The notes below the pieces were generated by a model, which saw only the letters and a list, made by a program, of their open reading frames with translations, had not been told where the DNA came from and did not search any database. A program made the translations under genes and the position numbers. 64,000 nucleotides of DNA. Origin: an uncultured Gemmatimonadales bacterium (GTDB lineage: Bacteria; Gemmatimonadota; Gemmatimonadetes; Longimicrobiales; RSA9). Of this stretch, positions 18,109 through 49,132 are shown one piece after another (the first letter of the stretch is position 1; each line of letters begins with the position of its first letter). Location of the stretch: contig CAWCRS010000008.1 of the NCBI GenBank assembly GCA_963798085.1, positions 224,001 to 288,000 of the forward strand. The letters run 5' to 3'.

Positions 18109-18581
18109 TGCTGAGCGCCGAGGAATTGCTCGCGGGCAGCGGGCTGGCGTACGAGGTGCGCCTGCCGCCGGAGGTATTGCGGCCGGGCGCGGGTGATGCG
18201 GCGAACGCGGGCGCGCAGACGGTGAAGCTGCGCCCGCTCACCGTGGCCGATCTCCAGCTGGTCACGCGCGCCGCCAGGGAGAGCGACACGCTGGTCGCCA
18301 CGCTCATGGTCCAGCGCGCGCTGATCGAACCCGCCATGACGGTCGTGCAGGTGGCGGGCATGCACGTGGGACTGCTGGAATTCCTGCTCGGCGAAGTCAT
18401 GCGCATCAGCGGCATGAGCGTGACCGAGCCCGAATTGCAGTCCGCGGTGGAGGCGCCGCTGGCGAAGGCGGCGCACGTGCTGGCGAAGGAGTTCGGCTGG
18501 ACACCGCCACAGGTCAGTGAGCTGACGCTGGGCCAGATCATGGTGCACCTGCAGATGCTGCAGCAGGAGGCATCACCTTGA
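18108..18581 (+). CDS. Tail assembly chaperone (G-like domain VKLRPLT fused in frame to a T-like FGWTP..ELT domain)
   Basis: Follows the tube with TGATG coupling. VKLRPLTVADL..ALIEP..VMRISGM, then LAKEFGWTPPQVSELTLGQ. Confidence 0.75.
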   Translation: MLSAEELLAGSGLAYEVRLPPEVLRPGAGDAANAGAQTVKLRPLTVADLQLVTRAARESDTLVATLMVQRALIEPAMTVVQVAGMHVGLLEFLLGEVMRISGMSVTEPELQSAVEAPLAKAAHVLAKEFGWTPPQVSELTLGQIMVHLQMLQQEASP

Positions 18582-19657: not shown

Positions 19658-22600
19658 ATGGCCACGGTACTCGAGCAGATCCAGGCTGCGCTGTCCGGCA
19701 ATGACGCGAACGTTCGCGTCAGCGCGCAGGCCGGCAACCTGCAGGGCATCGGCGGCCTGGTCGCGGGTCTCGCGAAGAGTCCGCCCGCGCAGATCACGAA
19801 CCTGCAGCGCGCCTTCGCCGCGCTCGAGCTGCCCGACTTCCCCCTGGGCGATTTCGTCTCGCGCATCAGTGACGCGCGCGCGGCCCTGCCCACGGATGCG
19901 GGGGGCGCGCTCAGCGGCGTGCTGGGAGATCTCTCGAACATCGAGCAGGAGTTCAGCGGCGGCATCGCGTCGTCGCTGGCCAATGCACTCGTCGCCTTCG
20001 AAAAGGTGCAGGCGCTGGCCGACATCCGGTTCCACTGCACGAATGGCGCAGGCAGTGCACCGGCGGGCGGCGGCAGTGCGGGCGGAGCGGGCGGAGCGGG
20101 CGGCGCGGGCGGCGCGAGTGGCTCAGGCGGTGCCGGTGGCACGGGCAGCGCCACGGCGCCGCCGCCCACACCCATGGCGCTCGCGGTGGCGCAGGCTGAC
20201 AGCGTGTTCGACCGACTGCCGGTGCCCTTCGATCTGCGCGCGCTGCTGCGCTTCCTGCACGACAAGACAGCGTTCCGCCGCGAACCGCTGTTCCCGGCGG
20301 TGCTGCCGCTGTTCGACGATCTGCGCGATCCGCTGGACACGCTCATGGTGTGGGAGTCGCTGACACCGGCGCAGGTGCTGCAGCAGATCGCGACGGCGCT
20401 GCAGGATGCGAACACGCATGTACGCACGGGTGTGGAGCGCACGCTGGGTCCGCTGTTCGCCGACCTCGATGGCTTCATGGCCACCATGCCGGCGGCGGAC
20501 CTCGCCCGCATCGCGGACCGCATCACCATCCGTCTGGGCGAGCTGCGCGCCGCGGTGCAGGCCGGCAATGTGGGCGGCACAGGCGGGGCCGTGAGCGAGA
20601 TCGGTGCGCTGCTCGACGAATACGATGCGCTGCGCCCCGCACTGGCGCCTCGCATCAATGCGGTGCCGGCGCTGCGTACACGTCTCGCCGAAGTGGCGGA
20701 GGATCTGGACCTCGGCATGGCCAGCATGGTCTCGATCCTGAAGCCGGGCGGCGGCGCGCTCACTCGCCTGGCCATGCCGCGCTTCGAATGCGCTGAACCG
20801 GCTGCAGATCTGGGCGCAGGGCATGGCCGACTGGCTGCACAATGTGGCCGGCGCCATTGACCTCTCCGCCATCCAGGGCCCCATCGGCACCATCGCCGGC
20901 CGCGTCGAGTCCGTGGCCGAGGGGCTGCAACAGGGCATTACCACGATCACGGTGGACGTGCAGAGCGTGTTCACGACCGTGCAGTCCGTGATCGACACGC
21001 TCGATCCTGCGCAGCTGCAGGCGGAGGTGCAGGCCGCAGTCCAGCGTTTCCGCGACGAGATCATTGCGCGTGTCAGCGCCCTGGTCGGCCCGGCGCGCGC
21101 GGCGGTGCTTCAGGCTGTGACCGCGATCGATCAGGCCGTCGGTGCATTCGATCCGGGCAATGTCATTGCGGCCATCTCCGCTGCCATCAATGCGCTGGCC
21201 GGCGTGCTGGGCGATGGTCCCATCGGCCAGGCCATGAGTGCCGTGCACGATGGCCTCGAAGCGGTGGCGAAGCAGCTGACGGCGCTCTCCTTCACACCCA
21301 CCGCCGACTCCGTGGTGAGCGTGATCGACTCCCTCCGATCCACGCTCGAGGCCATCGATCCGGCTCTGCTGCCCTCGCCGGCAGCGGATGCGCTCAAGTC
21401 CGCCGCATCCGTGCTGCCGGGCGATCTCGAGCCCATCACGGATCCCATCATCGACAGCTTCGGCGAGATCGTGGACAGCGGGCCGACCCCGGTTCTCGAG
21501 CAGGTGCGCGATGCGCCCGCGCAGTTGCTCGAGGCCGTGCGCAGCTTCGATCCCGAATCGCTGGTCGGCGATCAGCTGACGGGACCGTTCAATAGCGTGC
21601 TGCGCTCCATGGAGCAGTTCCGGCCGAGCGATCTGCTGAAGCCAGTGGGCAAGGAGCTGGACGCCTTCAAACAGCAGCTGCGCAAGGCAGCCAGTCCGGG
21701 GCGCGCAGCGCAGGCGCTGCAGGCACCGTTCGACGCGCTGAAGCAGACGCTCGCGAACTTCGATCCCAATGCACTGGTGCAGCCGCTGCAGGGGGCGCTC
21801 GCAACCGTGCGCGACGGCCTGCTCAAGGTTGTGCCGGTGGATGAGACGTTCGCCATCATCGACGAAGGTCTTGCCGCCGTCCAGCGCGTGCTTGACACCA
21901 TGGACGCGGTGGTGCGAGTCCTGCGCCGTGTGCACGAGGCTGCGAATTCGCTCGTCGGTGTGCGCGGACAGCTGGACGCGTGGGTGAACAATGTACTGGC
22001 GCGCGTCGAATGGCATTACGGACACGTCGAGCCTGGTGCCGTTGCTGGACAACCTGCGCACCGCGCTGGATGGCACGCGCGCGTCGGCGATCGGTCCGCG
22101 TTTCGCCGCGGGCACGGCCACGGCGCGTGCTGCGCTCGACAGCGTGAACGGCACGACCCGTCTCGCGTCGCTGATCCAGGCGCATCGTGCCATCCCGCGG
22201 CCCGCGCTGCAGGCGCTGCCGGCCTCGGCGCAGAAGACCGCACTGCAGGCGGTGCTGGATCGCTTCGATCCACTGCTGCCCGCGTTCGGTTCGCCATGGC
22301 AGCAGCTGGGCGCGCTGCGCCAGGGACTCGTCGAGGGTGACGCCGAGCTGCAGGCGCTGCTGCCCGTGTGGGACGATCGCTTCCACTTCGCGGGCGGCTC
22401 ACTCGACGAGCTGCGTCAGGCCCAGCCCACCACGGCGCAGTTGCGCGCGTTCGCGCAGCAGGCGCTCGAGACGCACTTCGTCGAGCCCATTGCCAACGCC
22501 CTGTCGTTTCTCGATCCGGCAAGAGAGTTCCTCGATGCTCTGCTGACTCCCTTCGAGGATCTGATCACCACGCTGCACGCGCGCCTGGCCGCACTGCTCA

Positions 22601-23121
22601 CGGGCCCGGCATCACTCACGGCGATTCGCGATGGGCTGGGCCGCATCGACGACCTGGTGAAGGGACTGGACCTCGAGTTCCTGCGCACCAGCCTGCACAC
22701 GCTGTTCGACGACATTCGTCACAAGCTCGACGACGTGAGCCCGCAGAAGCTGGCGGAAGCGCTGGACAGGAGCTTCGCGGCGGTGCTGGACGGCATCACG
22801 ATCGATCTGATCCTGCCGCCCGCCAATGTGAAGCAGATCGACAAGACATACAGCGACGTGGTGGAGAAGCTGCGGTTGCTCGACCCGTCGCACATCGTGA
22901 ACAATGTGGTGAAGCCGCTCTTCGAGCAGAAGGTGGTGCCGCTCGTCGACAAGTTCGACGTCTCGCCCTTCATCGACACGATCAACGATCGCCTGGGTTC
23001 GCTCGACGATGAGCTGCGCGCGGAAATCGGGCATGTGAATCAGGCGTACATCAAGCTGCTCGCGGCACTGCCCTCCGGCAGTACGCCGAGTGCCAGCGTG
23101 TCCGTCTCGGTAGCCGCATGA
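19658..23121 (+). CDS. Long amphipathic alpha-helical protein A (~1153 aa after repairing +1 insertions at ~20787 and ~22009); tape-measure-like
   Basis: Three consecutive ORFs (19658, 20823, 21991) align end to end with the intact paralog at 26217-29669 (e.g. REPLFPAVLPLFDDLRDP / NEPLLPAVIPVWDDLRDP; DSGPTPVLEQV / DSGPVPVLEQV). The 3464 nt span minus 2 is a multiple of 3. Confidence 0.8.
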
Positions 23122-23146: not shown

Positions 23147-25615
23147 ATGGTGATGGGCGAAGTGCTGACGCAACCGCAGCGCATGCGACGCGCAACCGTC
23201 ATGGATCCGGGCATTGCCCTGATCAATGACCTGACCAGCCTGGCCACACGACTCGCGCAGGACGCGGAACAGAGCGCTCAGCTTGCGCAGGTTGCACGCA
23301 GTGCGCTGGAAGACGCAGTCCGCACACTGGTGCAGCAGCGGCTGGGAGCGCTGAAGTCGGTATTGCCGAAGCTGGCGGACTGGCTGCTGCGCGTGCTGCG
23401 CGCGACCACCGGCATCGGGCCCGAGCTGATCCCCACGTCTTCCCCCGCGGGTGTGCTGTCTCTGATCAGCCAGCTCATCGACACGATGGCGCAGGCGGCG
23501 CAGAACGGAAATGCCGCGCGCATTCAGCCGTACGTCGCCGAGCTGCTGGGCATCGTGCAGCACGATCTGGGGTTGAGCCTGCCCGCGCTCGAGACTGCCT
23601 TCTGGGGCGTGATCGACTCCATCATTGCACGTCTCGAGGCACTGCCGCTCGAGGCGGATCGCCGCGAGCGCGAGAACCGGCTGGACACGATTCGCGCACT
23701 GCGCCGCATGCGCCGGCTGGTACGCGGCCGGTTCCCGCTGCCCGCACTGGATGCCGATCGCATAGCTGATGCTCTGGCGGCAACGCTGCGCACCATCGAC
23801 GCGGCCGCGCTGGGCCGCGCGGCGCAGTGTGTGGCCCAGGCGATCGAGAAAGTAGCCGATGCGGGCCAGGCCATCGAGCAGCTGGTGCCGCTCGGCGCGC
23901 TGACCGGGTTCCGCAGCCTGGGCGCGGCTGCCGCGGTGGCCAGTGGGGAGACCTACTGCTGGTACGCCAGCTGGCTGTATGAGGAGGACGTGATCATCAA
24001 TGCGGCGGGCACGGAGATCCGGCGCGGCGACACCGTCATTGCCAGCGGCACGGGCCTGACCTTCGCCAGCATCCCCGACTTCACGACGGCCACGCCACAC
24101 TACACCTTCAACTGCGTCAGCCTCGCCACCATGGAGACGCTGACCAACGTCGTGTTTGTGCTGGCCGACGCCATCATCGTGGTGTGCCATCTGGTGTCGA
24201 TCGAAACTGGCGACGTCGCTTCCAATGCCCTGAATGTGGGCGCCTTCGGCTTCCTGGGCGTCATGGGCAAGCTGGTGGGCAGGAGTCCGCTCGCCTCCAG
24301 CGGTGTCGAGGACTGGGTCTACCCCCTGGCGGCCTCGTTCGCGGGCTCGTTCCAGGGTATTCACACGAAAGCGTCGGGCGGCAACATCTTCCTCATGTGG
24401 GTGACGCTGTTCCTGCCCGACTTCATCGAGGCGGTCATCTACAAGCAGGTCTCGCTCATTGCCCGCGACCTGGTGCTGTCGCTGCTGACACTGATCAACT
24501 ACGACGGGCCGCTCGAGTCGTCCGGCTCACCCGATACGCGCCCGCTCAACCGCATTCACATCGACGGCGTGGCCTGGGTGGGCGAGTGGCTGGGCAGTCT
24601 GGTATTCATGACGTTCTATCCCCGCGAGGAGTACGCGCAACCCTTCGCCTCGGGCGGGCACGCGGCCAAGTTCTTCCTGTTCTGGGACCTGTTCCTTAAC
24701 AACCTGTTCTACGTGCTGGGCCGGCTGGTGGGCTGCATCCTGGGCATGTCGGTGGCGCAGGTGTTCGACTTCGACACATGGGTGAAGCCCATGCCGCTCA
24801 AGCTGCTGCTGCTCAATCCGCTCATGTTCATTGTGAGCCTGTACATGGACAAGGAAGGGGACACGAAGGACGGACATTACAACCCGACCGGTGCGGAATA
24901 CGCCGGTTACCCGGACAAGGCGTCGTCGCCCTATCAACTGCCGTTCCCGAAGGACAACACGTACTACCTGGTGCAGGGCAACCAGGGATTCTTCAGTCAC
25001 CACCACCTCAATTTCGATCAGCAGTACTCGTACGACTTCTCCATGGACCAGGACGATCCCATCCTGGCCAGCCGCCCGGGCACGGTCGTCGATTATTTCG
25101 ACTGGATCAAGGACAACACCAATCCGGACACAACGGATATGACTGCGGCGACGACGGAAGCGACCGCGTCCGGCTTCCTCGTACCCGGCCAGACCACGTC
25201 CGACAGCTGGAACTTCATTGCCATCCGCCATGATGTGGACGATGCGGGCGCCGCGCTCCCGCCGGATAACACGCACGACAAGGCGGCGGGCGGCAGCGTG
25301 GTGACGACGTACGCGATCTACGGTCACGGGCGGAAGGGCAGTGTGCGCGATGCATTCCAGGCGAGGGGCGTGGCCGCCAACGCGATCATCGGTACGAAAG
25401 TCAAGCAGGGCCAGCGCATCATGCGCTCCGGTGACACGGGCGTGAGCTTCAACAATCACCTGCACATCATGGTGCAGGAAGGGCCGGCGAGCACGACGGC
25501 GCCGCCGGTTTCGCGGGGCGCGCTGTCGCAGCCGACGCTCCCGTTCGTGTTCAAGGACGCGGGCGTGCCAAAGCACCTGGACTGGTACGAGTCGAGTGTG
25601 ACGGAGGTAGTCTGA
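23147..25615 (+). CDS. Helical N-domain + multi-pass hydrophobic region + C-terminal M23 metallopeptidase, paralog 1
   Basis: QGNQGFFSH..YSYDF, ILASRPGTVV, YAIYGH and VKQGQRIMRSGDTGVSFNNHLH. Several hydrophobic segments; no signal peptide. Confidence 0.82.
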   Translation: MVMGEVLTQPQRMRRATVMDPGIALINDLTSLATRLAQDAEQSAQLAQVARSALEDAVRTLVQQRLGALKSVLPKLADWLLRVLRATTGIGPELIPTSSPAGVLSLISQLIDTMAQAAQNGNAARIQPYVAELLGIVQHDLGLSLPALETAFWGVIDSIIARLEALPLEADRRERENRLDTIRALRRMRRLVRGRFPLPALDADRIADALAATLRTIDAAALGRAAQCVAQAIEKVADAGQAIEQLVPLGALTGFRSLGAAAAVASGETYCWYASWLYEEDVIINAAGTEIRRGDTVIASGTGLTFASIPDFTTATPHYTFNCVSLATMETLTNVVFVLADAIIVVCHLVSIETGDVASNALNVGAFGFLGVMGKLVGRSPLASSGVEDWVYPLAASFAGSFQGIHTKASGGNIFLMWVTLFLPDFIEAVIYKQVSLIARDLVLSLLTLINYDGPLESSGSPDTRPLNRIHIDGVAWVGEWLGSLVFMTFYPREEYAQPFASGGHAAKFFLFWDLFLNNLFYVLGRLVGCILGMSVAQVFDFDTWVKPMPLKLLLLNPLMFIVSLYMDKEGDTKDGHYNPTGAEYAGYPDKASSPYQLPFPKDNTYYLVQGNQGFFSHHHLNFDQQYSYDFSMDQDDPILASRPGTVVDYFDWIKDNTNPDTTDMTAATTEATASGFLVPGQTTSDSWNFIAIRHDVDDAGAALPPDNTHDKAAGGSVVTTYAIYGHGRKGSVRDAFQARGVAANAIIGTKVKQGQRIMRSGDTGVSFNNHLHIMVQEGPASTTAPPVSRGALSQPTLPFVFKDAGVPKHLDWYESSVTEVV

Positions 25616-25619
25616 TCGC

Positions 25620-26213
25620 ATGAAGATCAAACCGATGCTCGGCGACTGGGAGGTGCCTCACATTGCAGGCATCGAGACGCTCGAGCGCCGCGAGCTGGCG
25701 GAGCTGGAGATTCCCGGGCGCACGGGCAGCCTGTTCCAGGACCTGAACGCCGCGCCCACGCGCATTGCCATTCGCGGCAGCCTCTTCGGCGATGCGAACC
25801 GCGATGACTTCCTGCAGCAGGTGCGCGACAAGTTCCGCGCAGGCGAGCCGGTCACGTTCGTCGCCGACATCATTACCGCGACTGAGGTGCAGTACGTCCT
25901 CATCGAAACCATGCATTTCGCGGAGAGCGGTGTTGCGCCCGATGAGACCAGCTACTTCCTGGTGTTGCGCGAGAGTCCGCCGCCGCCACCGCCACCGGAC
26001 CCACTGGGCGGCCTCGATGCGGGGCTGCTGGATCAGGCGGGCTCGCTGCTCGACACGGTGACGGGCGCGCTCGATGCCCTCGACGCGCTGGCCAACATTC
26101 CCGACCTGCAGGATCCCACGCCACCGCTGCGTGGCATTCTGGACGGTGTGTCCGGCGCGCTCGATGGACTGGGCGGCGTGACCGGCTCCATCAGCGATCT
26201 CTTCGGCAGCTGA
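25620..26213 (+). CDS. Tail tube initiator / baseplate-proximal protein (Mu gp43 'DNA circularization' N-domain / P2 gpU-like)
   Basis: RRELAELEIPGRTGSLFQDLNAAPTRIAIRGSL..GEPVTF..VLIE..YFLVLRE, then a poly-Pro linker and a helical tail. Confidence 0.72.
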   Translation: MKIKPMLGDWEVPHIAGIETLERRELAELEIPGRTGSLFQDLNAAPTRIAIRGSLFGDANRDDFLQQVRDKFRAGEPVTFVADIITATEVQYVLIETMHFAESGVAPDETSYFLVLRESPPPPPPPDPLGGLDAGLLDQAGSLLDTVTGALDALDALANIPDLQDPTPPLRGILDGVSGALDGLGGVTGSISDLFGS

Positions 26214-26216
26214 CGC

Positions 26217-29200
26217 ATGGCGACCGTCTCCGCGCAGCTCGACGCCAGCATGGCCGGCAATGATGTGTCGGCACGCGTGGGCACGCAGATCACGCAGCTG
26301 AACGGCATCGCGACGCAGCTGGCCACGCTGATCCAGCATCCGCCCGGTGCTGTGAACCAGCTGTTGCGCGCGTTCGGCGATCTGCCGCTGCCCGAGTTCC
26401 AGGTCGCGGCGCAGCTGTCCACCCGGCTGATCGAGATGCGCGGCGCCGTGCCCACCGATGTCAGTGGACTGCTGCGTGGCGTGCTCGATGGCATCGCCCA
26501 ACTGCAGACCGACTTCGGCGGTGCACTGGGTGGCCAGCTGGCGAAGGCGCTGCTGCTGATCGAGCGACTGCACGCGCTGACGCAGATCGACCTGCGCTGT
26601 CTGGGTGGCGCTTCGTCGAGCACGGCGACACTGACGGCGGGCGGGGCAGCGGGCGCAACTGGCGCGAGCGGCGTGGCGGCGGCGACCGGCACGAGCGCGG
26701 CCACTGCACCCTCGCCGTCCGCCACGCAGGACACGGTCGCACGTGCTAACACGATCCTCGATGCCATACCGCAGCCGCCCGGCATCGAGGGTGTGCTGCG
26801 CTGGGCGCACAGCGGCACCGTGATCGAACGCAATGAGCCGCTGCTGCCCGCCGTGATCCCGGTCTGGGATGATCTGCGCGACCCCGTGGATACGCTGATC
26901 ACGTGGGACACCATGACACCGGCGCAGCTGGGCGTCGAGCTGACCACGTCGCTCACCGACACGGCCGCGTTCCTGCGCGAGACGCTGGCACGCGAGCTGG
27001 AGCCGCTGGCCGCGGACATCAGCGCGCTGCTGACGCCGCTGCCGCAGGCGGATCTCACGCGCATTGCGGATCGGCTGACCGCGCGTCTCGTTGCGATCGG
27101 TGCTGCAGTGCACGCCGGCAACCTCAGCGGCATGAGTCCGGCCGCGACGGAAGTGCACGCGCTGCTCGATGAGTACAGCACATTGCAGGCGACACTGCCC
27201 GTCACGCTCGCGACCGACGCGACGCAGCTGCGGGGCCGGCTGGCCGAGCTGGCGGATGATCTGCATGAAGGCTGCTGCCACGCGATCTCGATTCTGCGTC
27301 CGGGCGGCGCGGTCCTCATCAATCTTCCGGCCGGCCTCGAGGCCAATGCGCTGGCGGACCTGCGCAACTGGCTCACCGGCGTTTCCGACTGGCTGGAAAA
27401 TGTGCTGAGCGCCGTCGATCTGGACGCGCTGCAGGCGCCCATCAGGCAGCTGGCGAGTGGTGCGCAGGGTGTGGCCGCTTCGCTGGATGAAGCCCTGGCC
27501 ACGGTCGTGGTGCAGGTGCAGAGCCTGTTCCAGCAGCTGGAATCGCTCATCGATGCGGTCGACATCGCCGCTATAACGACCAGCGTGCAGACCGCGATCA
27601 CGCAGTTCCGCACCGAGGTGGTGCAGCGCATCACGGGTGCGCTCGCTCCTGCGCGCACGGCGATCGAACAGGCCGTTGGCGCACTCGCCGCTGCGGTCAA
27701 TGGTTTCGACCCCGCCGACATTGTGGCCGCGCTGCACGATGCCATTGACCGGGTGGCGGGCGTGCTGCAGGACCCGGGCGTGACCGCGGCGATCGGCCAG
27801 ATCAAAGGTGTGATCGACACCGCCACGCAGCAGGTGCAGTCGCTTTCCTTCACGCCCGTGACCGATCAGGTGATTGCCGTGATCGATGCGCTGAAAGGGA
27901 AGGTGCAGGAGATCGACCCGGCGCAGCTGCCCGATGCCGCAAAGGCGGCGTTAGCGGCGGCCGCGCTGGTGCTGCCCTCCGATCTGCAGCCCATCACGGA
28001 CCCGATCGTGGTGGATTTCAGCGGTCTGGTGGACAGCGGACCCGTGCCCGTGCTGGAGCAGGTGAAGCAGCAGCCGGCGAAGCTGCTCGAGCAGGTGACG
28101 CGCTTCGAGCCGTCGAAGCTGATCGGTGATACACTGTCGCAGCCGTTCCAGAAGCTGCTGCGCGACCTGGATGCGTTCCGGCCGAGCAAGCTGCTCAAGC
28201 CGCTGGGCAGGGAGCTGGACACCTTCAAGCAGACGCTGCTGCGCAGCGCCTCGCCCAGTCGTGCGCTGCAGCCTCTGGCCGGTCCCTTCGGCGAAGTGAC
28301 GGCCGCACTGGGCCGGCTGGATCCGACACAGCTTACCAAGCCGATCGACGACGCACTGGCCGAGGCCGGCAAGAAGCTGTCAGACCTGCTGCCCGTGCAG
28401 GACCTGTTCGATGCGATTGATGCAGTGCTCGGCGCCGTACGCCGTTTTCTCGACAGCTATGACGCCATGCTCGCGCTGCTGCGCCGCCTGCACGGGCTCG
28501 CCGATGCCCTGGCGAATGCGCCCGCCGACCTGGTCGCCTGGATCAACCGCGTGCTGGACAGGATCGAGCAGGTGCCGGATCCCGCGGCCGTCAATCTGGG
28601 CGTCGTAGCCCTGCGTGATGCGGTCGATGCGACGCGCGGCGCCGCCATCGGGGCGCGCTTCAATGCGTTGACCGCGACATCGCGGGCCGCCTTGGACAGT
28701 GTCGATGGCGGGAACCGGCTGTCCGCGCTGATCACGGCGTATCACGGCGTTTCGCGACCCGCGCTCGAGGCATTGCCCGACTCGCCGACGCGCACATCGC
28801 TGCTTGCGGCACTGGACCGCTTCGATCCGCTGACCCCCTCGTTCGGTGCGCCCTGGCTGGCATTGGGTCAGTTGCGCAGCGCAGTGGGCGGCGCCCGCGC
28901 GGCGCTCGAGGCGCAGCAGAGCCAGTGGGACACCGACTACCACTTCGCGGGCAGTGCGCTCTCCGATCTGCGACGCGATTCCGCCACACCGGCCGAACTG
29001 CGCGCGTTCGCGCAGGAGCTGCTGGACGCGCAGCTGGTGCAGCCGATCGCGGCCGTGAGTGCATTCCTGGAGCCGGCGCGCGTGGTCTTCGGCAGCATTC
29101 TCGACGGCGTGGAAGATCTGCTGGGCCGCGTGCGCAGCCGCCTTGATGCGCTGCTGCTCGGGCCGCAGTCGGTGCAGGGTCTGCGCGATGCCATGGGTGA

Positions 29201-29669
29201 CATTGTCGCCGACGTGACCAGCCTGAACGTCGATTTCCTCCCTGACAGCCTCAACACGCTGTTTGGCGCGGTGCGGGCCAGACTCGAGGCCATCTCCCCC
29301 GCAGCACTGGGCAAGCCGCTGGATGACGTGTTCAAGGCCATCCTGGACACCTTGAGCCTCGAGGTCGTGCTGCCGAAAGCGGAGCTGCAGGCGCTGGACG
29401 CCACTTACGAAGCGTTCGTCGCGAAGATCCGTCCGCTCGATCCGGGCCAGCTCGTGATCGAAGCCGTGCAGCCGGTCTGGGATCAGACTGTGCTGCCCCT
29501 GCTGGCGGCGTTCGATCTCACGCCCGTGATCGAGGCGCTGATCGAGAAGCTGCATTCCCTCGATGACAGTCTGCGCGCGGAGCTGGAACGCGTGAACGGC
29601 TCGTACCAGCAGCTGCTCGCCGCCATCCCGTCGGGGGATGTCAGCGTCAGCGCGAGTATCTCGCTATGA
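26217..29669 (+). CDS. Long amphipathic alpha-helical protein B (1150 aa); tape-measure-like
   Basis: Intact ORF, collinear paralog of 19658-23121. Recurrent (F/L)DP..L helical repeats and a Gly/Ala/Thr linker near residues 130-170. Confidence 0.82.
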   Translation: MATVSAQLDASMAGNDVSARVGTQITQLNGIATQLATLIQHPPGAVNQLLRAFGDLPLPEFQVAAQLSTRLIEMRGAVPTDVSGLLRGVLDGIAQLQTDFGGALGGQLAKALLLIERLHALTQIDLRCLGGASSSTATLTAGGAAGATGASGVAAATGTSAATAPSPSATQDTVARANTILDAIPQPPGIEGVLRWAHSGTVIERNEPLLPAVIPVWDDLRDPVDTLITWDTMTPAQLGVELTTSLTDTAAFLRETLARELEPLAADISALLTPLPQADLTRIADRLTARLVAIGAAVHAGNLSGMSPAATEVHALLDEYSTLQATLPVTLATDATQLRGRLAELADDLHEGCCHAISILRPGGAVLINLPAGLEANALADLRNWLTGVSDWLENVLSAVDLDALQAPIRQLASGAQGVAASLDEALATVVVQVQSLFQQLESLIDAVDIAAITTSVQTAITQFRTEVVQRITGALAPARTAIEQAVGALAAAVNGFDPADIVAALHDAIDRVAGVLQDPGVTAAIGQIKGVIDTATQQVQSLSFTPVTDQVIAVIDALKGKVQEIDPAQLPDAAKAALAAAALVLPSDLQPITDPIVVDFSGLVDSGPVPVLEQVKQQPAKLLEQVTRFEPSKLIGDTLSQPFQKLLRDLDAFRPSKLLKPLGRELDTFKQTLLRSASPSRALQPLAGPFGEVTAALGRLDPTQLTKPIDDALAEAGKKLSDLLPVQDLFDAIDAVLGAVRRFLDSYDAMLALLRRLHGLADALANAPADLVAWINRVLDRIEQVPDPAAVNLGVVALRDAVDATRGAAIGARFNALTATSRAALDSVDGGNRLSALITAYHGVSRPALEALPDSPTRTSLLAALDRFDPLTPSFGAPWLALGQLRSAVGGARAALEAQQSQWDTDYHFAGSALSDLRRDSATPAELRAFAQELLDAQLVQPIAAVSAFLEPARVVFGSILDGVEDLLGRVRSRLDALLLGPQSVQGLRDAMGDIVADVTSLNVDFLPDSLNTLFGAVRARLEAISPAALGKPLDDVFKAILDTLSLEVVLPKAELQALDATYEAFVAKIRPLDPGQLVIEAVQPVWDQTVLPLLAAFDLTPVIEALIEKLHSLDDSLRAELERVNGSYQQLLAAIPSGDVSVSASISL

Positions 29670-29694
29670 CGGTGCGCGGCCGGGAGGCGTGGTC

Positions 29695-32205
29695 ATGGTG
29701 ATGGGCTCCGTGCTGGTGCAGCCGCAGCGCGTGCGCCGCGGCCGGCACGCGGATCCGGGGATCTCGCTGTTCACGGATCTGTTCAGCGTGATTACTCGCC
29801 TGTTGACGGACGCGAAACTGGGCGGCCGGCTGGGCGACATCGCCGGCGAGGCGCTCGTCGCCAATTTCCAGCGCATTGCGACGGAGCGCGTCGCGCGCAT
29901 CGCGCAGGCGGGCCCGCACGCGGTGCAGCGGCTGCTCGATCTGCTGCGCGCGATAACCGGTGTCAGTGCGACGGTTCGCATCGCGGCGCCGGCGGACGCG
30001 CTGGAACTCGCGCGTCAGCTGCTGGACCACTTCGCGGATGGTGTGGAAGGGGTTACCGCGGTGCGTCTGCGCCCGCATGTCGCGGCATTTCTGGACATTC
30101 TCGAGACCGACCTGGGCTTCAGCCTGGTGCAGGCGGAGGCCGAGTTGTGGCGCATCGTCCACGACATCATCGACCGCCTCGAAGCCGAGCCGCCGGAGCC
30201 GAACGTGCGCGCCCGCGAGAATCGCCTCGAGGTCATCTGTCTGCTGCGGCGCATCCTGCGCGTACTCTCGGGTTTCACCATGCCGCGCATCAATGCGGAT
30301 GGGCTCGCCAGCCTCATGGCGTCGCTGCTGGCCGGCCTCAGGGCGCCGGCGTTTGCCGCCCGCCTGCGCTGCGTGGCGCGCGCACTGGAGAGCGCGGCGC
30401 GTACCGGCCAGAGCGTGACCGAGCTGGTCGCGATCGGCTCGTTCGCGGAGTTCCGCAGCCTGGGCGCGGCCGCCGCGGCGGCGGAGCAGCAGGAACGCTT
30501 CTGCTGGTACGCCACGTGGGTGCTGGGGAAGAACACGGTGATCAGCAAGGACCGGTCAGAGATCCGCTTTGGTGGCAAAGTCGTCATGACTGGCGAGAAC
30601 CTCGGCCTGGCCGATATCCCCGAGTTCCGCGACACGAACACAGTCGACGGCAAGCCGTTCTTCTACACGTACGCCAGGGTCGATCTGGAGGCGCTCGACA
30701 CCATCGCGTTCGTGAGTGCCGTGGCGGCGGACGCACTCATTGTGCTGTTCCACACGATCTCAATGGAGGAAGGCGACTTCATCGCCAACCTCGTAAACAT
30801 GCAGTTTGCCATGCTGGCGGGCATTTACAAGGCGGCCGCCGCCAGGCCCATGCTGCCGCTCTGGGCCGAGAACTGGCTCATTCCAATGGGCATCACGATT
30901 CCGGCCTCGCTCGAAGGCATCCACACGCACGCCGCCCCGGCGCAGGGCGCCATTCTGTGGCTCACGCTTTTCGGACCGGATTTCGGCGAGGAACGGTTGT
31001 ACCGGGGGTACGGCCTGACCGCGCGCAACGCGCTGTTATCCATCCTCACACTGGCGAATCACAGGAACGCGCCCAACGGCGTGCCGGAGAATCACAAGGT
31101 CGCGGCCGGCCTCAACGACCTGCTGGGCTTCGTGGTCAGCATGCTGTACAGCCTGAAGGTGCCACGCGACGAGTGGGGCCTGGTCAATACACAGGTGACG
31201 CCGCGCGACTTCAATGCGGGCCTTGTCTTCGGCTGGGTGCTGGGCTTCGCATCGCTGGGCTGGCTCACCGGTCGCGTGGTGGGCGGGCTGCTGGCGTGGG
31301 CGATCACGCGCGAGGTGGCGCCCTGGGCATGGTTCGGCCGGCGCTGGTGGTCCCTCTTCGAGCACTGGCTCTGGTACGCCAGCTTCCTGTACTGGTGGAT
31401 CGAGGGCGACACCGACGGTGGCCATTACAACTCGGCCGGCGGACCGGCGTACGCCGGCTATCCGCCGAAGGAGAACTCGCCGTACACACTGCCCTACGTG
31501 GCTGGAAACTCGTGTTATGTGGGCCAGGGCAACATGGGCCTGTTCAGCCACAACAAGCTGAATGGCGACCAGACGTATGCCATCGACTTCGCACTGGATC
31601 AGGACGAGAAGATCCTGGCCGCGCGCGCCGGCACCGTCGTCGACTGGTTCGACTGGGTCACCGACGACGAGAACATCAGGACGGCATGGCCTGACGCGGC
31701 CGCCGCGGACAATCCCACGGGTGTGCAGCCGGTCGTGCTGCCGGATGGAACATCCCAGACCACATCCTCGGTCAAGAATTTCATCCTCGTGCGTCACGAC
31801 CGCGACGAAGACGGCAACCTGCTGCCCGTGGGCACGTTCAATGACACGCACGATCGGGGCGCGGGCAACACGCCGACACGCACGTACACGGCGTACCTGC
31901 ACGGTCGCAAGGGAAGCATCCGCGAAGCGTTTGCCGCACGCGGCATTACGCCCGTCAACATCATGGGTCAGGTACTGCTGCGCGGGCACTGGATCATGCG
32001 CACGGGCGCCACGGGCAAGGCGCCGCACAACCATCTGCATTTCGCGGCCAGGCCGGGCCCGGACAACGCCGAATTCGTGGTGCCGTACAGCTCCATGGGT
32101 GACGAGCTGCCGGTCGTATTCCGCGATGTCAGCAACTTCCTGGGCACCGACGGCGTGCCGACGAAGCTGAACTGGTACACGTCGTCCACCGCGGAGCGGT
32201 CATGA
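29695..32205 (+). CDS. Helical N-domain + multi-pass hydrophobic region + C-terminal M23 metallopeptidase, paralog 2
   Basis: GQGNMGLFSH..YAIDF, ILAARAGTVV, YTAYLHG and TGATGKAPHNHLH. GGAGG RBS before MVMGSVLVQPQR. Confidence 0.82.
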   Translation: MVMGSVLVQPQRVRRGRHADPGISLFTDLFSVITRLLTDAKLGGRLGDIAGEALVANFQRIATERVARIAQAGPHAVQRLLDLLRAITGVSATVRIAAPADALELARQLLDHFADGVEGVTAVRLRPHVAAFLDILETDLGFSLVQAEAELWRIVHDIIDRLEAEPPEPNVRARENRLEVICLLRRILRVLSGFTMPRINADGLASLMASLLAGLRAPAFAARLRCVARALESAARTGQSVTELVAIGSFAEFRSLGAAAAAAEQQERFCWYATWVLGKNTVISKDRSEIRFGGKVVMTGENLGLADIPEFRDTNTVDGKPFFYTYARVDLEALDTIAFVSAVAADALIVLFHTISMEEGDFIANLVNMQFAMLAGIYKAAAARPMLPLWAENWLIPMGITIPASLEGIHTHAAPAQGAILWLTLFGPDFGEERLYRGYGLTARNALLSILTLANHRNAPNGVPENHKVAAGLNDLLGFVVSMLYSLKVPRDEWGLVNTQVTPRDFNAGLVFGWVLGFASLGWLTGRVVGGLLAWAITREVAPWAWFGRRWWSLFEHWLWYASFLYWWIEGDTDGGHYNSAGGPAYAGYPPKENSPYTLPYVAGNSCYVGQGNMGLFSHNKLNGDQTYAIDFALDQDEKILAARAGTVVDWFDWVTDDENIRTAWPDAAAADNPTGVQPVVLPDGTSQTTSSVKNFILVRHDRDEDGNLLPVGTFNDTHDRGAGNTPTRTYTAYLHGRKGSIREAFAARGITPVNIMGQVLLRGHWIMRTGATGKAPHNHLHFAARPGPDNAEFVVPYSSMGDELPVVFRDVSNFLGTDGVPTKLNWYTSSTAERS

Positions 32206-32212
32206 GGCGCGC

Positions 32213-34663
32213 ATGGTGATGGGCTCCGTGCTGGCGCAGCCGCAGCGTGTGCGGCGAGGCCGGGTGGCCGGGCCGGAGGCCGCGCTGATCGCGGACCTGG
32301 GCAGCCTGCTCACTCGCCTGACCACGGACGCCAGCCGCGGCGGCCGCATCGCCGGAATCGTGCAGGACGCGCTGCTCGCCGCCTTCGAGCGCATCGTCAA
32401 TCAGCATCTCGCAAAGGTGCAGCAGGCCGGGCCGCGCGTACTCCAGCGGCTGGGCGACCTGGCGCGCGCGATTACGGGTCTGGATGCCAGCGTGCGCGTG
32501 AATACGCCGGCGGACGCGCTCGACATCGCGCGCCGGCTGCTCGATCACGTCGCGGACGGCATGGAAGGGTTGAGCGCGGCGAAGATCCAGCCTCACGTCG
32601 TCGCCTTCATCGACATTCTCGCGACGGATCTGGGCTTCAGCATCGAGCAGGCCGAGTCGGAGTTCCGCGCCCTGTTCGACGACGTCATCAACGCGCTCGA
32701 AGCGGCGCCGCCCGAGCCCTCGGTGGAGGCACGCGAATCCCGCCTCGAGGCTGCGTGCGTGCTGCGCCAGCTGCGCCGCCACGTGCTGGCGCGGTTCCAG
32801 CTGGAGCGCATGGATGCCGCCCGCCTTGCCAGCCGCCTTGCCCGGCTGGTGAGCAACCTGCGCGCGCCCGCCTTCGCCAGCCGCCTGCGCTGCGTGGCGA
32901 GGGCACTCGAACAGGCAGTTAGTACGGGCCGCGCAGTCCAGGACCTGGTGCCCGCCGGCGCGTTCGCCGGCTTCCGCAGCCTGGGCGCGGCGGCCGCGGC
33001 GGCCGCACAGAAGGAGCAGTACTGCTGGTACGCGTCCTGGGTGCTGCATGACGACGTCGTGATCAGCAGCGACGGCACCGGGATCCGCAAGGGCAACACC
33101 GTCATTGCGCACGGCCGCGACCTGACGCTGGCCGACATTCCGCAGTTCCTGCCGGGCCACGACCCGCATTTCTCGTTCGCCCGGTTCGGCGTCGAAACGC
33201 TGGAAACCATCGCGCTGGCCAGCGCCGCGGGTGCGGACGCGCTGATGTTCCTGCTGCACTTCATCTCGCTGGAGCAGGGCAATGTGATCGCCAACAGCGT
33301 GAACCTGCCGCTGGCCTTCACGTCAGGCAGTCTCAAGGTCGTGCTCCGCCATCCGCTGATGGGTCCCATCAAGGAGCAGTGGCTGCTGCCGCTGGCGCTC
33401 ACGTTCCCGGCATCGCTCGAGGGGCTGCACGACAAGGCCACCGGCAAGAACCGCTTCCTGATGTGGCTCACGCTGGTGGGCCCGGATGTGGGCGAGGAGC
33501 GACTGTACCGCTTCTACGGCAGTGCGCTCCGCAATGCGCTGTTATCCACGCTCACACTGCTGAATCACAAGGAGCCGGCGGCCGCTGGTGTCCGCCCGGA
33601 GAACTTCAAGGAGCTGGACGGCTTCTCCGATTTCATCGGCTACATCATCGCCATCATGATCTCGACACACATGAGTCGCGATGACTGGTGGATCCTCAAT
33701 GCGCAGGTCACGCCCAGCCAGATCCAGTGGTCGCTCTTCTTCTGGCACTGGCTGGGCAAGTCCACGCTCTGCGCCATGACGGGGCGGCTGGTGGGCGGCT
33801 TCTATGCCTTCATCGCGTCGCAGGCCAGGGCGCCCTTCAAGTCCTGGCTCTTCCCCAGCTGGTACATGATGCTCGTGCACTGGTTCTGGTACATCGCATT
33901 CACCTACTGGCACATGGATGGCGACACCGATGACGGCCGCTACAACGGCCACACCGGCGGCGCCGCCTTCACCGGCTATCCGTCGAACGGCAGTTCGCCG
34001 TACACACTGCCGTATTCCGGCAGCCTGTGTTATGTGGGGCAGGCCAATGAAGGCGTGTTCAGCCACAACCACCGCAACGGCGATCAGACGTACGCCATCG
34101 ACTTCTCGCTCGACCAGGACAGACACGTGCTGTGCGCGCGGCCCGGCACGGTCGTCGACTGGTTCGATTTCGCGCCCGACAACGAGAACACGTCCACCGC
34201 GGCGGATCCGGCCATCGTCAAGGCCGGACAGACACACAACAGCGGCGCCAACTTCGTGCTGGTGCGCCACGACATCGATGACAATGGCGTGGACATACCC
34301 GTCGGCACCTTCGACGCCGTGCACGATCTGGGCGAAGCCGGCGTGGCGGGTCGCACGTACGCGCTGTATCTGCACGGCCGCAATGGCAGCGTGCGCGAGG
34401 CTTTCCTCAGCCGCGGCATCAACGCGGTCGACATCATCGGCCAGGTCGTGAAGCGCGGAGACTGGATCATGCGCGCGGGTGACACCGGCGTCAGCTTCCA
34501 CAACCACCTGCACATGGCGATCTCCATCGGACCCGACGTGAAGCTGCCCACCAGCGTGAAGCTGTCCGGACTGAGCGATCCTGACATCCCGTATGTGTTC
34601 AAGGATGTCGACGGTCCGGTCACCAAGCTGAACTGGTACCGCTCCAGCACGGTGGAGACCTGA
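32213..34663 (+). CDS. Helical N-domain + multi-pass hydrophobic region + C-terminal M23 metallopeptidase, paralog 3
   Basis: GQANEGVFSH..YAIDF, VLCARPGTVV, YALYLHG and VKRGDWIMRAGDTGVSFHNHLH. Confidence 0.82.
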   Translation: MVMGSVLAQPQRVRRGRVAGPEAALIADLGSLLTRLTTDASRGGRIAGIVQDALLAAFERIVNQHLAKVQQAGPRVLQRLGDLARAITGLDASVRVNTPADALDIARRLLDHVADGMEGLSAAKIQPHVVAFIDILATDLGFSIEQAESEFRALFDDVINALEAAPPEPSVEARESRLEAACVLRQLRRHVLARFQLERMDAARLASRLARLVSNLRAPAFASRLRCVARALEQAVSTGRAVQDLVPAGAFAGFRSLGAAAAAAAQKEQYCWYASWVLHDDVVISSDGTGIRKGNTVIAHGRDLTLADIPQFLPGHDPHFSFARFGVETLETIALASAAGADALMFLLHFISLEQGNVIANSVNLPLAFTSGSLKVVLRHPLMGPIKEQWLLPLALTFPASLEGLHDKATGKNRFLMWLTLVGPDVGEERLYRFYGSALRNALLSTLTLLNHKEPAAAGVRPENFKELDGFSDFIGYIIAIMISTHMSRDDWWILNAQVTPSQIQWSLFFWHWLGKSTLCAMTGRLVGGFYAFIASQARAPFKSWLFPSWYMMLVHWFWYIAFTYWHMDGDTDDGRYNGHTGGAAFTGYPSNGSSPYTLPYSGSLCYVGQANEGVFSHNHRNGDQTYAIDFSLDQDRHVLCARPGTVVDWFDFAPDNENTSTAADPAIVKAGQTHNSGANFVLVRHDIDDNGVDIPVGTFDAVHDLGEAGVAGRTYALYLHGRNGSVREAFLSRGINAVDIIGQVVKRGDWIMRAGDTGVSFHNHLHMAISIGPDVKLPTSVKLSGLSDPDIPYVFKDVDGPVTKLNWYRSSTVET

Positions 34664-34666
34664 GTC

Positions 34667-35794
34667 ATGGCCTTCGACCTCCCGCTCTTCGGCAGCAGTG
34701 CACCCCCCGCGGTGCGGCGCCCGCTGTTCCAGGTGTCATTCGGCGGCGGCGCCGCTGCCGGTGGGGGCGGCCTGCTCTCCGCCGCGGCATCCGCCGTCGG
34801 CCTGGGCGGTGGCGGTGCGGCGGATCCGTGGCAGCGCTCGATTGCGCGCATCACGCTCGAGCGGGGTGTGGCGCCCGAGCTGGATGGCGCGGAGATCACG
34901 CTGGCCGATGATGCACAGGCGCCACCCGTCGCGGTGGGCGACGCGGGCAGCATCGCACTGGGCTTCGAGGATGAAGGTCCGACCACTGTCTTCACCGGCC
35001 GCATCGAAGCGATCCGCCGTGATGCGCGCGGCTCACAGCGCATTACCATCGCGAACGGCGCTGCTCGCCTGGCAGCACTGCGCGTGCAGCAGAGCTTCGA
35101 GAATCAGTCGGCCGGCAATGTCGTGCGCGAACTGGCGGGCAAGGCCAATGTGACGCCCGGCAACATTGCCGACGGCGCAGACCTCGCCTTCCTCGTGCTG
35201 GATGATGCACGCAGTGCGTGGGACCACATTGCCAGACTGGCGCGCGTCAGCGGGCATATGGCGATCATGACTGCGGATGACGAACTGGATTTCCGGCCGC
35301 CGGACGACGGCCAGCCCGTGCAGTCGTTCCGCTGGGGCGTCAATGTGCTGTCCCTCGAGCGCGCGCAGACCGAACCGGTGTTCCAGAGTGTGACGGTTTC
35401 GGGCGAAGGCGCGGCGGGCAGTCAGGGCAAGGATGCGTGGAACTGGCTGACCAAACAGCCATCGTCGGTGACGGGTCAGGCGGGCAGCGGCGATCGCACG
35501 CGCAGCTTCGCGGACCGCGCACTGCGCACGGCGGACGCGGTGCAGGCGGCGGCGCGCGCCCTCGCGGATGCGGCGGCCCGCGCGGCGCAGGCGGGCGTGC
35601 TGCTCGTGCCGGGCGCGCCCGCTGTGCTGCCCGCCTCACAGATCCAGATCGGCAGCACACCGCGCGGTGGCATGGACGGCACATACCTGGTCACGCGCGT
35701 CCGACACACCTGCGACAAGCGCGCCGGCTTCCGCACACGCGTGCAGTTCATTGGCGCGAGCGGCGCGGCGGGCGCGACAGGAGGCCTGCCGTGA
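34667..35794 (+). CDS. Baseplate hub protein (phage late control D / gp27-like, VgrG N-terminal half)
   Basis: VGDAGSIALGF..VFTGRIE, QSFENQSAGNVV, SAWDHIARLA, FRWGVNVL and GTYLVTRVRH..GFRT. Confidence 0.85.
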   Translation: MAFDLPLFGSSAPPAVRRPLFQVSFGGGAAAGGGGLLSAAASAVGLGGGGAADPWQRSIARITLERGVAPELDGAEITLADDAQAPPVAVGDAGSIALGFEDEGPTTVFTGRIEAIRRDARGSQRITIANGAARLAALRVQQSFENQSAGNVVRELAGKANVTPGNIADGADLAFLVLDDARSAWDHIARLARVSGHMAIMTADDELDFRPPDDGQPVQSFRWGVNVLSLERAQTEPVFQSVTVSGEGAAGSQGKDAWNWLTKQPSSVTGQAGSGDRTRSFADRALRTADAVQAAARALADAAARAAQAGVLLVPGAPAVLPASQIQIGSTPRGGMDGTYLVTRVRHTCDKRAGFRTRVQFIGASGAAGATGGLP

Positions 35795-36402
35795 GCGCGA
35801 CACTGGTGGACTCCGTACGCCGCGTCGTGGCGGAGGAACTGCGGCGCCTGCGCTTCGCCGACCTGGCGCGCGTCACCGACATCCACCCCTCCGATCCCGA
35901 CAACTACGCCTGCACCGTCGAGCTGCGCGACAGCGGCATCGTGCTCAAGAACGTGCCCGTCGCCACGCACAGGATCGGCACGGTCAGCATTCCCGCGGTG
36001 AACGACCTCGTGCTCGTGCAGTTCGTGGGCGGGGATGTGAATGCGCCCGTCATTGTGGGCAGTCTCTACAACGACGAGGACCGGCCGCCGGAGAACAAGG
36101 ATGGGCAGTGCATCCTGCACCTGCCGCCCGGCGCGGCTGATTCGGATGCGGCGCACATCGAGCTGACCAGCGTGGATGCGCGCGTGCTCGTGATCCGCAT
36201 GGGCAGCACGGAGGTCACCATTCAGGATGATGACCCCGCCATCAGGATCAATGTGGGTGGCAACGCCACGCTGACGATTGGCAGCAATGGCGCGGTCAAG
36301 CTGCAATCCTCCGGCAGCATTGAAATCAAGGGCGATGGCAATGTTTCCGTGGAAGCGGGTGGTACGCTGAAGCTCAAGGGTGCCGTCGTGAACATCAACT
36401 GA
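35791..36402 (+). CDS. Baseplate spike protein (gpV/gp5 OB-fold + beta-helix)
   Basis: GTGA overlap with the hub. IPAVNDLVLVQFVGGDVNAPVIVGSLYN, followed by C-terminal beta-strand repeats ending LKLKGAVVNIN. Confidence 0.9.
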   Translation: MSATLVDSVRRVVAEELRRLRFADLARVTDIHPSDPDNYACTVELRDSGIVLKNVPVATHRIGTVSIPAVNDLVLVQFVGGDVNAPVIVGSLYNDEDRPPENKDGQCILHLPPGAADSDAAHIELTSVDARVLVIRMGSTEVTIQDDDPAIRINVGGNATLTIGSNGAVKLQSSGSIEIKGDGNVSVEAGGTLKLKGAVVNIN

Positions 36403-36411
36403 GCGACCGTC

Positions 36412-36795
36412 ATGGGACAGCCCGCCGCCAAACAGGGAGACTTCATTCAGGCCGTGGACACGCACATCGTGATCATCGGCCCGGCCACGCCGGCACTGCC
36501 GCATCCGTTCATGGGGCAGATCGACGGCGAGCTGAGCAGTGACGTGAACATCGAGGGCAAGCCGGCCGCGGTCGTGGGCAGCACGGCGAGCAACACGCCG
36601 TCGCACATTCCGGCAGGCGGGTCCTTCATGAATCCGCCGAAGAACAAGGGCACGATCATCATGGGCAGCGGCACGGTGAACATCAACGGCAAGCCGGCCG
36701 CGCGCATGGGTGACACGGCCACGACGTGCAATGACCCCGCGGACCTGCCTGTCGGCAAGGTGATCGCGTCCGGTACCGTGTTCATGGGAGGTTGA
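36412..36795 (+). CDS. PAAR-domain spike tip protein
   Basis: PAAKQGD, VNIEGKPAAVVGS, VNINGKPAARMGD..C and SGTVFMGG. Confidence 0.95.
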   Translation: MGQPAAKQGDFIQAVDTHIVIIGPATPALPHPFMGQIDGELSSDVNIEGKPAAVVGSTASNTPSHIPAGGSFMNPPKNKGTIIMGSGTVNINGKPAARMGDTATTCNDPADLPVGKVIASGTVFMGG

Positions 36796-36796
36796 G

Positions 36797-37298
36797 GTGG
36801 CGCAGAACGCGAACCTGCTCACGGACGTGCGCCTGGAGCTGCAGGACCACCGCCTGCGACCCGTCTATGTCGCGGCGCAGCGCGAAACGCACGTGCCCAC
36901 GCGGCCCGATCGCTTTCTCGATTTCAGATGTCACCACCGGTCGCGACAATCTGGCGCAGGCCATCATCATGCGGCTGCTGACGCCGCGCGGCGAGCTGGA
37001 CGCGCTCGGCCACCCGGAATACGGCTCGCGACTGCACGAGCTGATCGGCCGCACTAACACGGACACAACACGCAACCTGGTCAAGCTCTTCATCCTCGAG
37101 GCGCTGCAGCTGGAGCCGCGCATCGAGCCGAAGCTGACCGTGATCGTGACGCCCGCGGACGAGAAGCCGCCCGCCGTGGGCAAGGGCGCACGCAATGTGA
37201 CGCTGGCGCCGCGCGTCAATGTCGAGATTTCCGTCACGCCGGTCGGCGAAACCGCTGTCGTGACGATCGGACCCTTCACGCTGGAGCTCGAACCGTGA
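36797..37298 (+). CDS. gp25/GPW-like baseplate wedge protein; apparent +1 frameshift at ~36926
   Basis: GRDNLAQAIIMRLLTPRGEL..HPEYGSRLHELIG..EALQLEPRI. The N-terminus MAQNANLLTDVRLEL is in the adjacent frame. Confidence 0.88.
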
Positions 37299-45268: not shown

Positions 45269-45281
45269 CCAGGGCAGATCG

Positions 45282-49058: not shown

Positions 49059-49132
49059 AGCGCTGAGCAGAGCGCGACGCCCGGAGCGGCGCGCGTCAGG
49101 CATTGACTACACGAGAGCGAGCGGGAGCGATC

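Follow-up and report, generated by a model that had tools for sequence, protein, structure and literature searches.

A core M23-type peptidase gene in a contractile tail operon of an uncultured Gemmatimonadales bacterium

Three M23-type peptidase genes in a 64,000-nt stretch of DNA (hereafter the window) from an uncultured Gemmatimonadales bacterium (RSA9; GCA_963798085.1, contig CAWCRS010000008.1, positions 224,001-288,000, forward strand) are encoded in a 16-gene tail operon on the + strand (~15300-47357), of which the M23 gene is a core part and the only recognisable enzyme. The M23 observation of an earlier sequence-only reading is real and more general than was seen there: the operon encodes a hydrolase-bearing contractile tail, a kind already known, and the M23 gene suggests that this syringe attacks bacterial walls. 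The operon order is cap-position gene, sheath, tube, chaperone, low-complexity gene, 197-aa gene, 1,150-aa helical gene, M23 gene, hub and spike, followed by PAAR, gp25, baseplate J, a second baseplate gene and three distal genes (Table 1).

Table 1. Genes of the tail operon in the window and modules of M23 protein copy a.
Feature	Position	Strand	Remarks
First operon gene, terminator/cap position	15299..16435 (true start probably 15344)	+	No family match
Contractile sheath, short, 358 aa	16523..17599	+	PF04984 E 4e-11, PF17482, PHROG tail sheath
Putative tube, 164 aa	17614..18108	+	Position, weak PHROG matches; profile not T4 gp19/Afp1-type
Putative tail assembly chaperone	18108..18581	+	Position; conserved across loci; no profile match
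Low-complexity 348-aa protein, usual tape-measure slot	18578..19624	+	Conserved C-terminal helix; putative role
Helical partner copy A	19658..23121	+	Three frames, breaks near 20772-20797 and 22009; 43-47% identity to 26217-29669
M23 protein copy a	23147..25615	+	822 aa
Copy a, N-terminal amphipathic helical domain, residues 1-250	23147..23896	+	Conserved G-x-x-L-x-Q-P-Q start; predicted structure
Copy a, flexible Ala/Gly linker (251-265), YCWYASW motif, small beta module	23897..24121	+	Large insertions here in homologs
Copy a, helical bundle 326-569	24122..24853	+	Marginally hydrophobic helices 473-490, 503-537
Copy a, candidate insertion hairpin, helices 473-490 and 503-537	24563-24757	+	Marginal hydrophobicity
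Copy a, M23 zinc peptidase domain	24857..25612	+	H618, D630, H727, H771, H773
197-aa conserved gene, putative tube initiator	25620..26213	+	Weak phrog_184; poly-Pro linker, helical tail; putative role
Helical partner copy B, 1,150 aa, all-alpha	26217..29669	+	Tape-measure-like
M23 protein copy b	29695..32205	+	836 aa; H619, D631, H780, H782
M23 protein copy c	32213..34663	+	816 aa; H618, D630, H765, H767; sister of copy b
Baseplate hub	34667..35794	+	PF05954, PF24032, PHROGs
Spike, OB domain	35791..36402	+	Profile matches
PAAR tip	36412..36795	+	PF05488 E 5e-13
gp25-like sheath initiator	36792..37298 (true start probably near 36927)	+	Profile and PHROG matches
Baseplate J	37295..39061	+	PF04865 E 1e-19
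Second baseplate-type gene	39027..41826	+	Frame change near 40975-41033; single 922-aa ORF in locus L001
Three conserved distal genes, 500/645/691 aa, coiled-coil/fibre-like	41829..47357	+	Operon end

The M23 paralogs

End-to-end alignment of copies a, b and c, with pairwise identities of 40%, 38% and 52%, bears out the single architecture proposed earlier for the ORFs at 23147, 29695 and 32213. The zinc ligands, likewise reported as kept, are intact in all three copies (H618/619, D630/631 and HxH at 771-773, 780-782 and 765-767), and the accessory histidine (H727 in copy a) is invariant in the paralog alignment. The marks of M23 membership, namely the HxnD and HxH zinc/catalytic motifs and an upstream histidine (PMC12052989), occur in the three copies and in 130 of 139 homologs. 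The predicted structure of the domain matches M23 beta-sheet folds and supports the M23 identity, but the Pfam matches of the copies (PF01551; E-values of 2.8e-5, 1.8e-3 and 6.6e-4) are weak, with scores of 18.8-24.7 bits below the gathering score of 28.7, which some homologs pass. The three copies are proteins with an intact M23 site in a fold that is predicted with confidence. M23 enzymes cut peptidoglycan cross-links; the H-to-D spacing is mostly 10-13 residues, longer than the common HxxxD, and the substrate may therefore differ. LytM, lysostaphin, LasA and the LytM domains of EnvC/DipM share the fold and the HxnD/HxH zinc site, but the proteins described here have a long H-to-D loop, several insertions, no signal peptide and a fusion to ~570 aa preceding the M23 domain, for which no family match was found.

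The model of copy a is compact (pTM 0.89) and comprises a helical N-domain (1-250), a disordered linker (251-265), a beta module (~268-325), a bundle (326-569) and the M23 domain (571-822). The helical N-domain, middle and M23 domain of the tri-modular build suggested earlier are thus recovered, while the beta module and linker make the build one of four modules. In the whole-protein model, the bundle contains a hairpin-like hydrophobic pair, which makes it at most a candidate for an alpha pore-forming domain of the colicin/translocator type, a helical bundle that hides a hydrophobic hairpin. Insertions of at least 25 residues are found at the YCWYASW site in 49 of 138 homologs, the largest reaching ~600 aa; some are folded beta domains and one carries an OmpA domain. 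Other insertions interrupt the M23 loops or extend the C-terminus, in one homolog by DUF11/CARDB. A clade including P0141, P0144, P0149, P0160 and P0176 (one from Bacteroidia) has 260-450 aa of repeated beta-type domains beyond the M23 domain, for which no Pfam match was found.

No signal-peptide-like stretch occurs in the N-termini of the three copies, in agreement with the earlier reading, and only 5 of 69 family members exceed a KD value of 2.0 over 12 residues within the first 40 aa. Neighbouring genes between 23121 and 34667 are 3-25 bp apart, so that no small ORFs, immunity-like ones included, lie between the M23 genes, again as had been noted; copies a and b are separated by the 197-aa and 1,150-aa genes, both conserved operon members.

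The usual order elsewhere is low-complexity gene, 197-aa gene, helical gene, M23 gene and hub, while the window has an extra helical and M23 pair (partner copy A and copy a) ahead of the 197-aa gene and a further M23 gene, copy c, behind copy b. In a quick tree, copy a falls in one well-supported clade and copies b/c in its sister clade, also well supported; b and c are sisters (96%). The three copies derive from an old duplication (a versus b/c), in which the partner was duplicated too, and a later one (b versus c); an a-type protein (P0198) and a b/c-type protein (P0004) whose longest contigs have an identical length of 37,988 suggest that the older duplication exists elsewhere. Tandem copies are found in 4 of 85 loci (L004, L020, L053 and L076). 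Both copies in L076 keep the M23 site, while the first copy in L004 has the N-terminal and hydrophobic modules and lacks the M23 domain. In L004 (4052-13186), the helical and M23 cassette has been relocated and now stands last in a different set of baseplate/fibre genes. As had been claimed, the hydrophobic middle (segment 471-568) is the most divergent part among the paralogs (20-33%), and it is also the fastest-changing family-wide; next to comparable family pairs, of which 13 of 52 are equally low, the middles of the paralogs show no excess divergence. Partner copy A lies in three frames, probably through sequence errors, since 19 of 140 MacB-type genes in the assembly also change frame. 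About 140 MacB/FtsX-type permease genes were matched in the source genome, four of them in the window (190-2625, 8652-11375, 12578-15013 and 54331-57120), and a molybdopterin oxidoreductase large subunit gene (named by eye; 49103-51368) is split by an apparent frameshift near 50550-50617, as in other assembly genes.

The tail operon and its distribution

The product of the first operon gene has a conserved N-terminus of ~150 aa and a variable C-terminal domain, and the putative chaperone carries a C-terminal motif that may resemble that of P2 gpE'. No solved structural relative of the tube protein was found from the tube alignment. The low-complexity gene is a candidate ruler of variable length; its homologs span 315-481 aa, with only the ends conserved (C-terminal L-x-EQA-x-R-x-G-V-D-L). 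For the 197-aa protein, with a mean column identity of 68% across 16 loci, no structural relative was found; other tube initiators have LysM in the place of its helical tail. The last operon gene (45282-47357) and the second baseplate gene (39027-41288) share a ~110-aa segment (35% identity, E 4e-8); in L001 this segment occurs only in the baseplate gene, as far as that contig reaches. Capsid, portal and terminase genes are absent from the window ORFs scanned or read and from the examined flanks, as is an AAA+ ATPase (Afp15) from the same ORFs and the flanks of five genomes. In the latter survey 30 selected proteins were profile-scanned and the others read by eye. Neither the window operon nor these flanks showed a holin, an endolysin or a spanin (ORFs of at least 80 aa, so that smaller holins could be missed), and no conserved immunity candidate was seen in the flanks. 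The family gene is single-copy in the five genomes, and unrelated, non-conserved genes abut the operon at both ends. One Imm70 gene lies 4.7 kb past the operon in L041, beyond an integrase.

Helical partner copy B is modelled as all-helical (pLDDT 78, pTM 0.45), with Pro-punctuated amphipathic repeats of 23-24 residues and a repeat autocorrelation of 0.27 in residues 400-760, against a shuffle maximum of 0.14 over the whole protein. Partner length is nearly constant (1,074-1,183 aa in 50 of 51), and no hydrophobic segment is called in the 1,150-aa protein on the biological scale. The match ranges suggest that the modelled protein folds back on itself as a nested hairpin. Its likeness to tape measures comprises a weak phrog_1272 match (E 0.0086) and fold matches among viral structures to tape measure/minor tail proteins, but with TM-scores of at most 0.12; the gene sits after the initiator slot, while the low-complexity gene occupies the usual ruler slot.

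The M23 family profile search yielded 207 representatives at E 1e-30 or better. Tail or helical-partner neighbours are present at 80 of 85 loci, the remaining five being contigs of 1.3-4.3 kb, and the tail association on which the sequence-only reading depended is thereby upheld. Thirty genome loci in the Pseudomonadota, Chloroflexota, Acidobacteriota, Gemmatimonadota, Cyanobacteriota and Actinomycetota share one gene order. The helical gene is directly upstream of the M23 gene in all 25 genome loci with enough flank, and the hub directly downstream in 24 of 26, the exceptions being L004 (rearranged) and L016 (a 2.8-kb contig). Of 55 metagenome loci, the helical gene is present at 36 and the hub at 45; 52 have one or both, and the other three span 1.3-4.3 kb. 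In L102 (98-4058), family matches occur on both strands in mirror order, and this contig is probably chimeric or folded back. One Bacteroidia protein is also a family member. The distribution is patchy, with one clear match among 40 relatives, no family match in 400 phylum genomes under stricter first-look criteria and no family member among 43 candidates on viral contigs; the nearest named tree neighbours are Longimicrobiales. Thauera mechernichensis TL1 and Hahella ganghwensis DSM 17046 encode a single-copy version, with the only PF04984 sheath match of each genome. Across 13 related loci, M23 protein distances track those of the sheath, tube, 197-aa protein, partner and baseplate J (Spearman 0.69-0.81, no formal test), with values of 0.50 for the hub and 0.44 for the spike. 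Being a fixed part of the core that diverges in step with the structural genes, the M23 gene is not a swappable, diversified effector gene.

The hydrophobic middle and the proposed mode of action

The middles had been described as Trp-rich and membrane-spanning. Copy b, with 17 W, and copy c, with 14 W, are indeed Trp-rich, copy a (8 W) less so, while a membrane-spanning nature finds little backing. Copies a, b and c have 3, 1 and 1 segments at KD of at least 1.6. In a scan on an approximate biological scale, the strict threshold is passed by 1, 0 and 0 of their segments and the lax one by 2, 2 and 1; two MacB permeases of the window, as controls, yield 8 and 7 strict segments, and four soluble control proteins no strict and 0-1 lax segments. 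Helix 503-537 is called in 127 of 139 homologs at the lax and 56 at the strict threshold, helix 473-490 in 54 and 7, respectively, and 77 homologs have no strict segment at all; in copy c, helix 503-537 escapes the lax threshold as well. The family as a whole preserves a charge-free, Gly-rich helix, although it is the fastest-changing part in sequence, and the copy a model buries helices 473-490/503-537 in a globular fold. A hairpin hidden in a soluble protein, which may insert into a membrane, fits these calls better than a membrane anchor does.

The M23 proteins are proposed, with moderate confidence, to serve as a payload built into a distinct contractile tail machine, which would deliver them into another bacterium's envelope. 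Of the two options raised earlier, an injected wall-lytic, membrane-active protein is the best reading in view of the tail association and intact M23 site, with the amendment that a fixed core gene is neither swappable nor diversified. The protein would be made soluble in the cytoplasm, away from peptidoglycan and with its hydrophobic helices buried, which would render a signal peptide and an immunity gene unnecessary. It would then be loaded near the hub or spike, probably by means of its amphipathic N-domain and along with the helical partner, and upon contraction be delivered into the envelope of another bacterium, where the M23 domain would cut peptidoglycan cross-links and helices 473-537 would insert into the inner membrane, breaching both wall and membrane. 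Such a dual breach would parallel the roles proposed for the diffocin hub hydrolase and tape measure in the available text of PMC11329794, and the three copies may widen the payload. Against a built-in payload stand the marginal hydrophobicity of helix 503-537, inserts of up to ~600 aa, some of them folded beta domains that would need unfolding to pass the tube, the long H-to-D spacing, and the absence of a lysis gene from every examined locus, although the particles would have to leave the cell.

That the particle instead fires at the producer's own envelope, with the M23 domain cutting its own wall for programmed lysis or particle release in place of a holin/endolysin, is considered unlikely, although it would agree with the lack of lysis genes in the window operon and the five flanks and has a precedent in cytoplasmic contractile injection systems that kill their producer, such as that of Streptomyces (PMC12237407; also PMC12998442, in its available text). 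The Chloroflexota carriers tested have peptidoglycan genes, so that a self substrate exists (murD over the cut-off in four of five tested genomes, all three Chloroflexota among them). The missing immunity genes do not discriminate between the readings, as a cytoplasmic M23 protein cannot reach the wall. Three divergent copies with active sites and variable binding-type inserts, however, suit varied foreign walls better, the operon is passed among phyla whose envelopes differ greatly and has no conserved membrane adaptor, and three distal fibre-like genes are retained. Also unlikely, and slightly more so, is an external baseplate drill, in which the M23 protein, with its partner, digests the wall as a folded appendage, the hydrophobic helices are merely the bundle core, and the tube or other cargo kills. 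The location among baseplate genes after the putative tube initiator, the compact fold, the tolerance of large folded inserts, the low-complexity gene in the ruler slot and the analogous diffocin hub hydrolase and phi29 tail enzyme speak for it, but the family-wide preservation of the charge-free helix does not, and the M23-less copy in L004 suggests that the middle has its own job.

The second option raised earlier, a conventional CisA- or TssJLM-like inner-membrane anchor whose M23 domain faces the producer's periplasm and opens a local hole, is improbable. One or two hydrophobic helices do precede the M23 domain, no TssL-type gene is found at the locus, and CisA shows that a bitopic adaptor can lack a signal sequence (PMC12237407). 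This option is nonetheless disfavoured by the missing export signal, by the lack of strict segments in 77 of 139 homologs and copies b and c (7-8 in the MacB controls), by the pairing of the candidate helices, which would keep both ends on one side, and by their burial in the model. It is highly improbable that these are ordinary polymorphic effectors with the N-domain as a loading tag for interchangeable toxins: the modular build with a flexible linker and the tandem copies in four other loci are in line with this, but 14 of 14 longer proteins matched by the N-domain profile (8,000 candidates scored) end in the M23 HxH motif, the gene position is fixed and the distances track those of the structural genes.

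Relation to known contractile systems

Diffocin, the R-type bacteriocin of Clostridioides difficile (hub-hydrolase CD1368, tape measure CD1366), and the operon described here have in common a contractile tail that lacks a head and in which hub and spike are distinct, together with a peptidoglycan hydrolase and a protein whose helices are proposed to enter the target membrane. In the available text of PMC11329794, the diffocin hydrolases (transglycosylase and Cys-His-His peptidase) are fused to the hub, which positions them to degrade the wall, while the membrane helices are in the tape measure, proposed to refold upon ejection and insert them. In the present system, by contrast, M23 domain and hydrophobic bundle belong to a single protein of their own, a helical protein of 1,150 aa is its partner, and both diderm and monoderm phyla carry the operon. 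Tme of the Streptomyces davawensis system (PMC11126660) and Sle1 (bioRxiv 10.1101/2025.11.06.686954), as far as the available texts describe them, are likewise large core cargo proteins encoded just upstream of the baseplate, with a helical N-part, hydrophobic helices (marginal here), a C-terminal functional domain and a cross-phylum spread. Tme has DUF4157, ~70% disorder and a nuclease C-terminus, and Sle1 depends on a DUF4157 partner, whereas the M23 protein lacks DUF4157, is predicted to be fully folded and, save for one M23-less copy, terminates in M23 where complete; DUF4157 (PF13699) is absent from the M23 locus and matches contigs C1 and C7 only (C7 weakly). Virion proteins with M23 domains for crossing the wall include the phi29 tail enzyme (PDB 3csq) and the cyanophage A4 ejection protein gp28 (PDB 9k2v), in which, in the available text of PMC12002296, helical bundles are joined to M23.

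Sheath, hub/spike, PAAR, gp25 and baseplate J are shared with Afp/PVC-type extracellular contractile injection systems (eCIS), for which peptidoglycan-hydrolysing cargo is known (toxin EAT10), although the present locus lacks a T4 gp19-type tube, Pvc16_N, DUF4157 and an ATPase, and EATs are accessory while the M23 gene is core (PMC6899500 and PMC8213781, available texts). From the eCIS core set given in the available text of PMC6899500, the sheath, Afp8 hub/spike (as separate genes), Afp9 and Afp11 are present, and the operon departs from it in tube type and ATPase. No Afp1/5 T4 gp19-type tube (PF06841) is found at the operon, only contig C1 being matched, as is the case for PF14065; the genes at 15299 and 25620 occupy the positions of the Afp16 terminator and the Afp7 initiator with no profile match. 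With R-type tailocins the operon shares contractile tail genes free of head genes. R-type tailocins have a linked holin/endolysin cassette, unlike the present operon: the window and five full neighbourhoods showed none. In open full text (supplements and subscription papers being outside this scope), only analogues and no published account of an M23-bearing contractile system like the present one were found; database tables could list such loci.

The operon may, as a tentative and rather doubtful proposition, represent an undescribed cross-phylum lineage outside the Afp/PVC eCIS, T6SS and lysis-linked tailocins, with an ejectosome-like two-gene core payload, in which the 1,150-aa amphipathic hairpin would span the target periplasm and its M23 partner would cut the wall and plug into the inner membrane. 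If so, it would be a dedicated antibacterial syringe without immunity or lysis genes, which Gemmatimonadota-related carriers would have expanded into a multi-warhead version. Where their targets are known, eCIS that carry effectors mostly act on eukaryotes or the producer. A catalytically intact wall peptidase at the core of an otherwise enzyme-free tail operon points to a bacterial envelope as target, and the triplication itself matters less; the His-to-Ala exchange in one gene provides a handle for testing such targeting, and the single-copy version in two cultured strains makes the target question testable at the bench. Marker-based surveys may have skipped this operon, which misses the usual eCIS markers. 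A separate canonical eCIS with a T4 gp19-type tube, Pvc16_N, DUF4157, sheath and baseplates lies on contig C1 (~80,800-104,400), while TssL/DotU (PF09850), the only marker searched for the TssJLM membrane complex, is absent from the operon and found in the source genome on contig C4 only. With these markers on C1 and C4, the M23 operon is the third system, and the source genome appears to hold three contractile systems.
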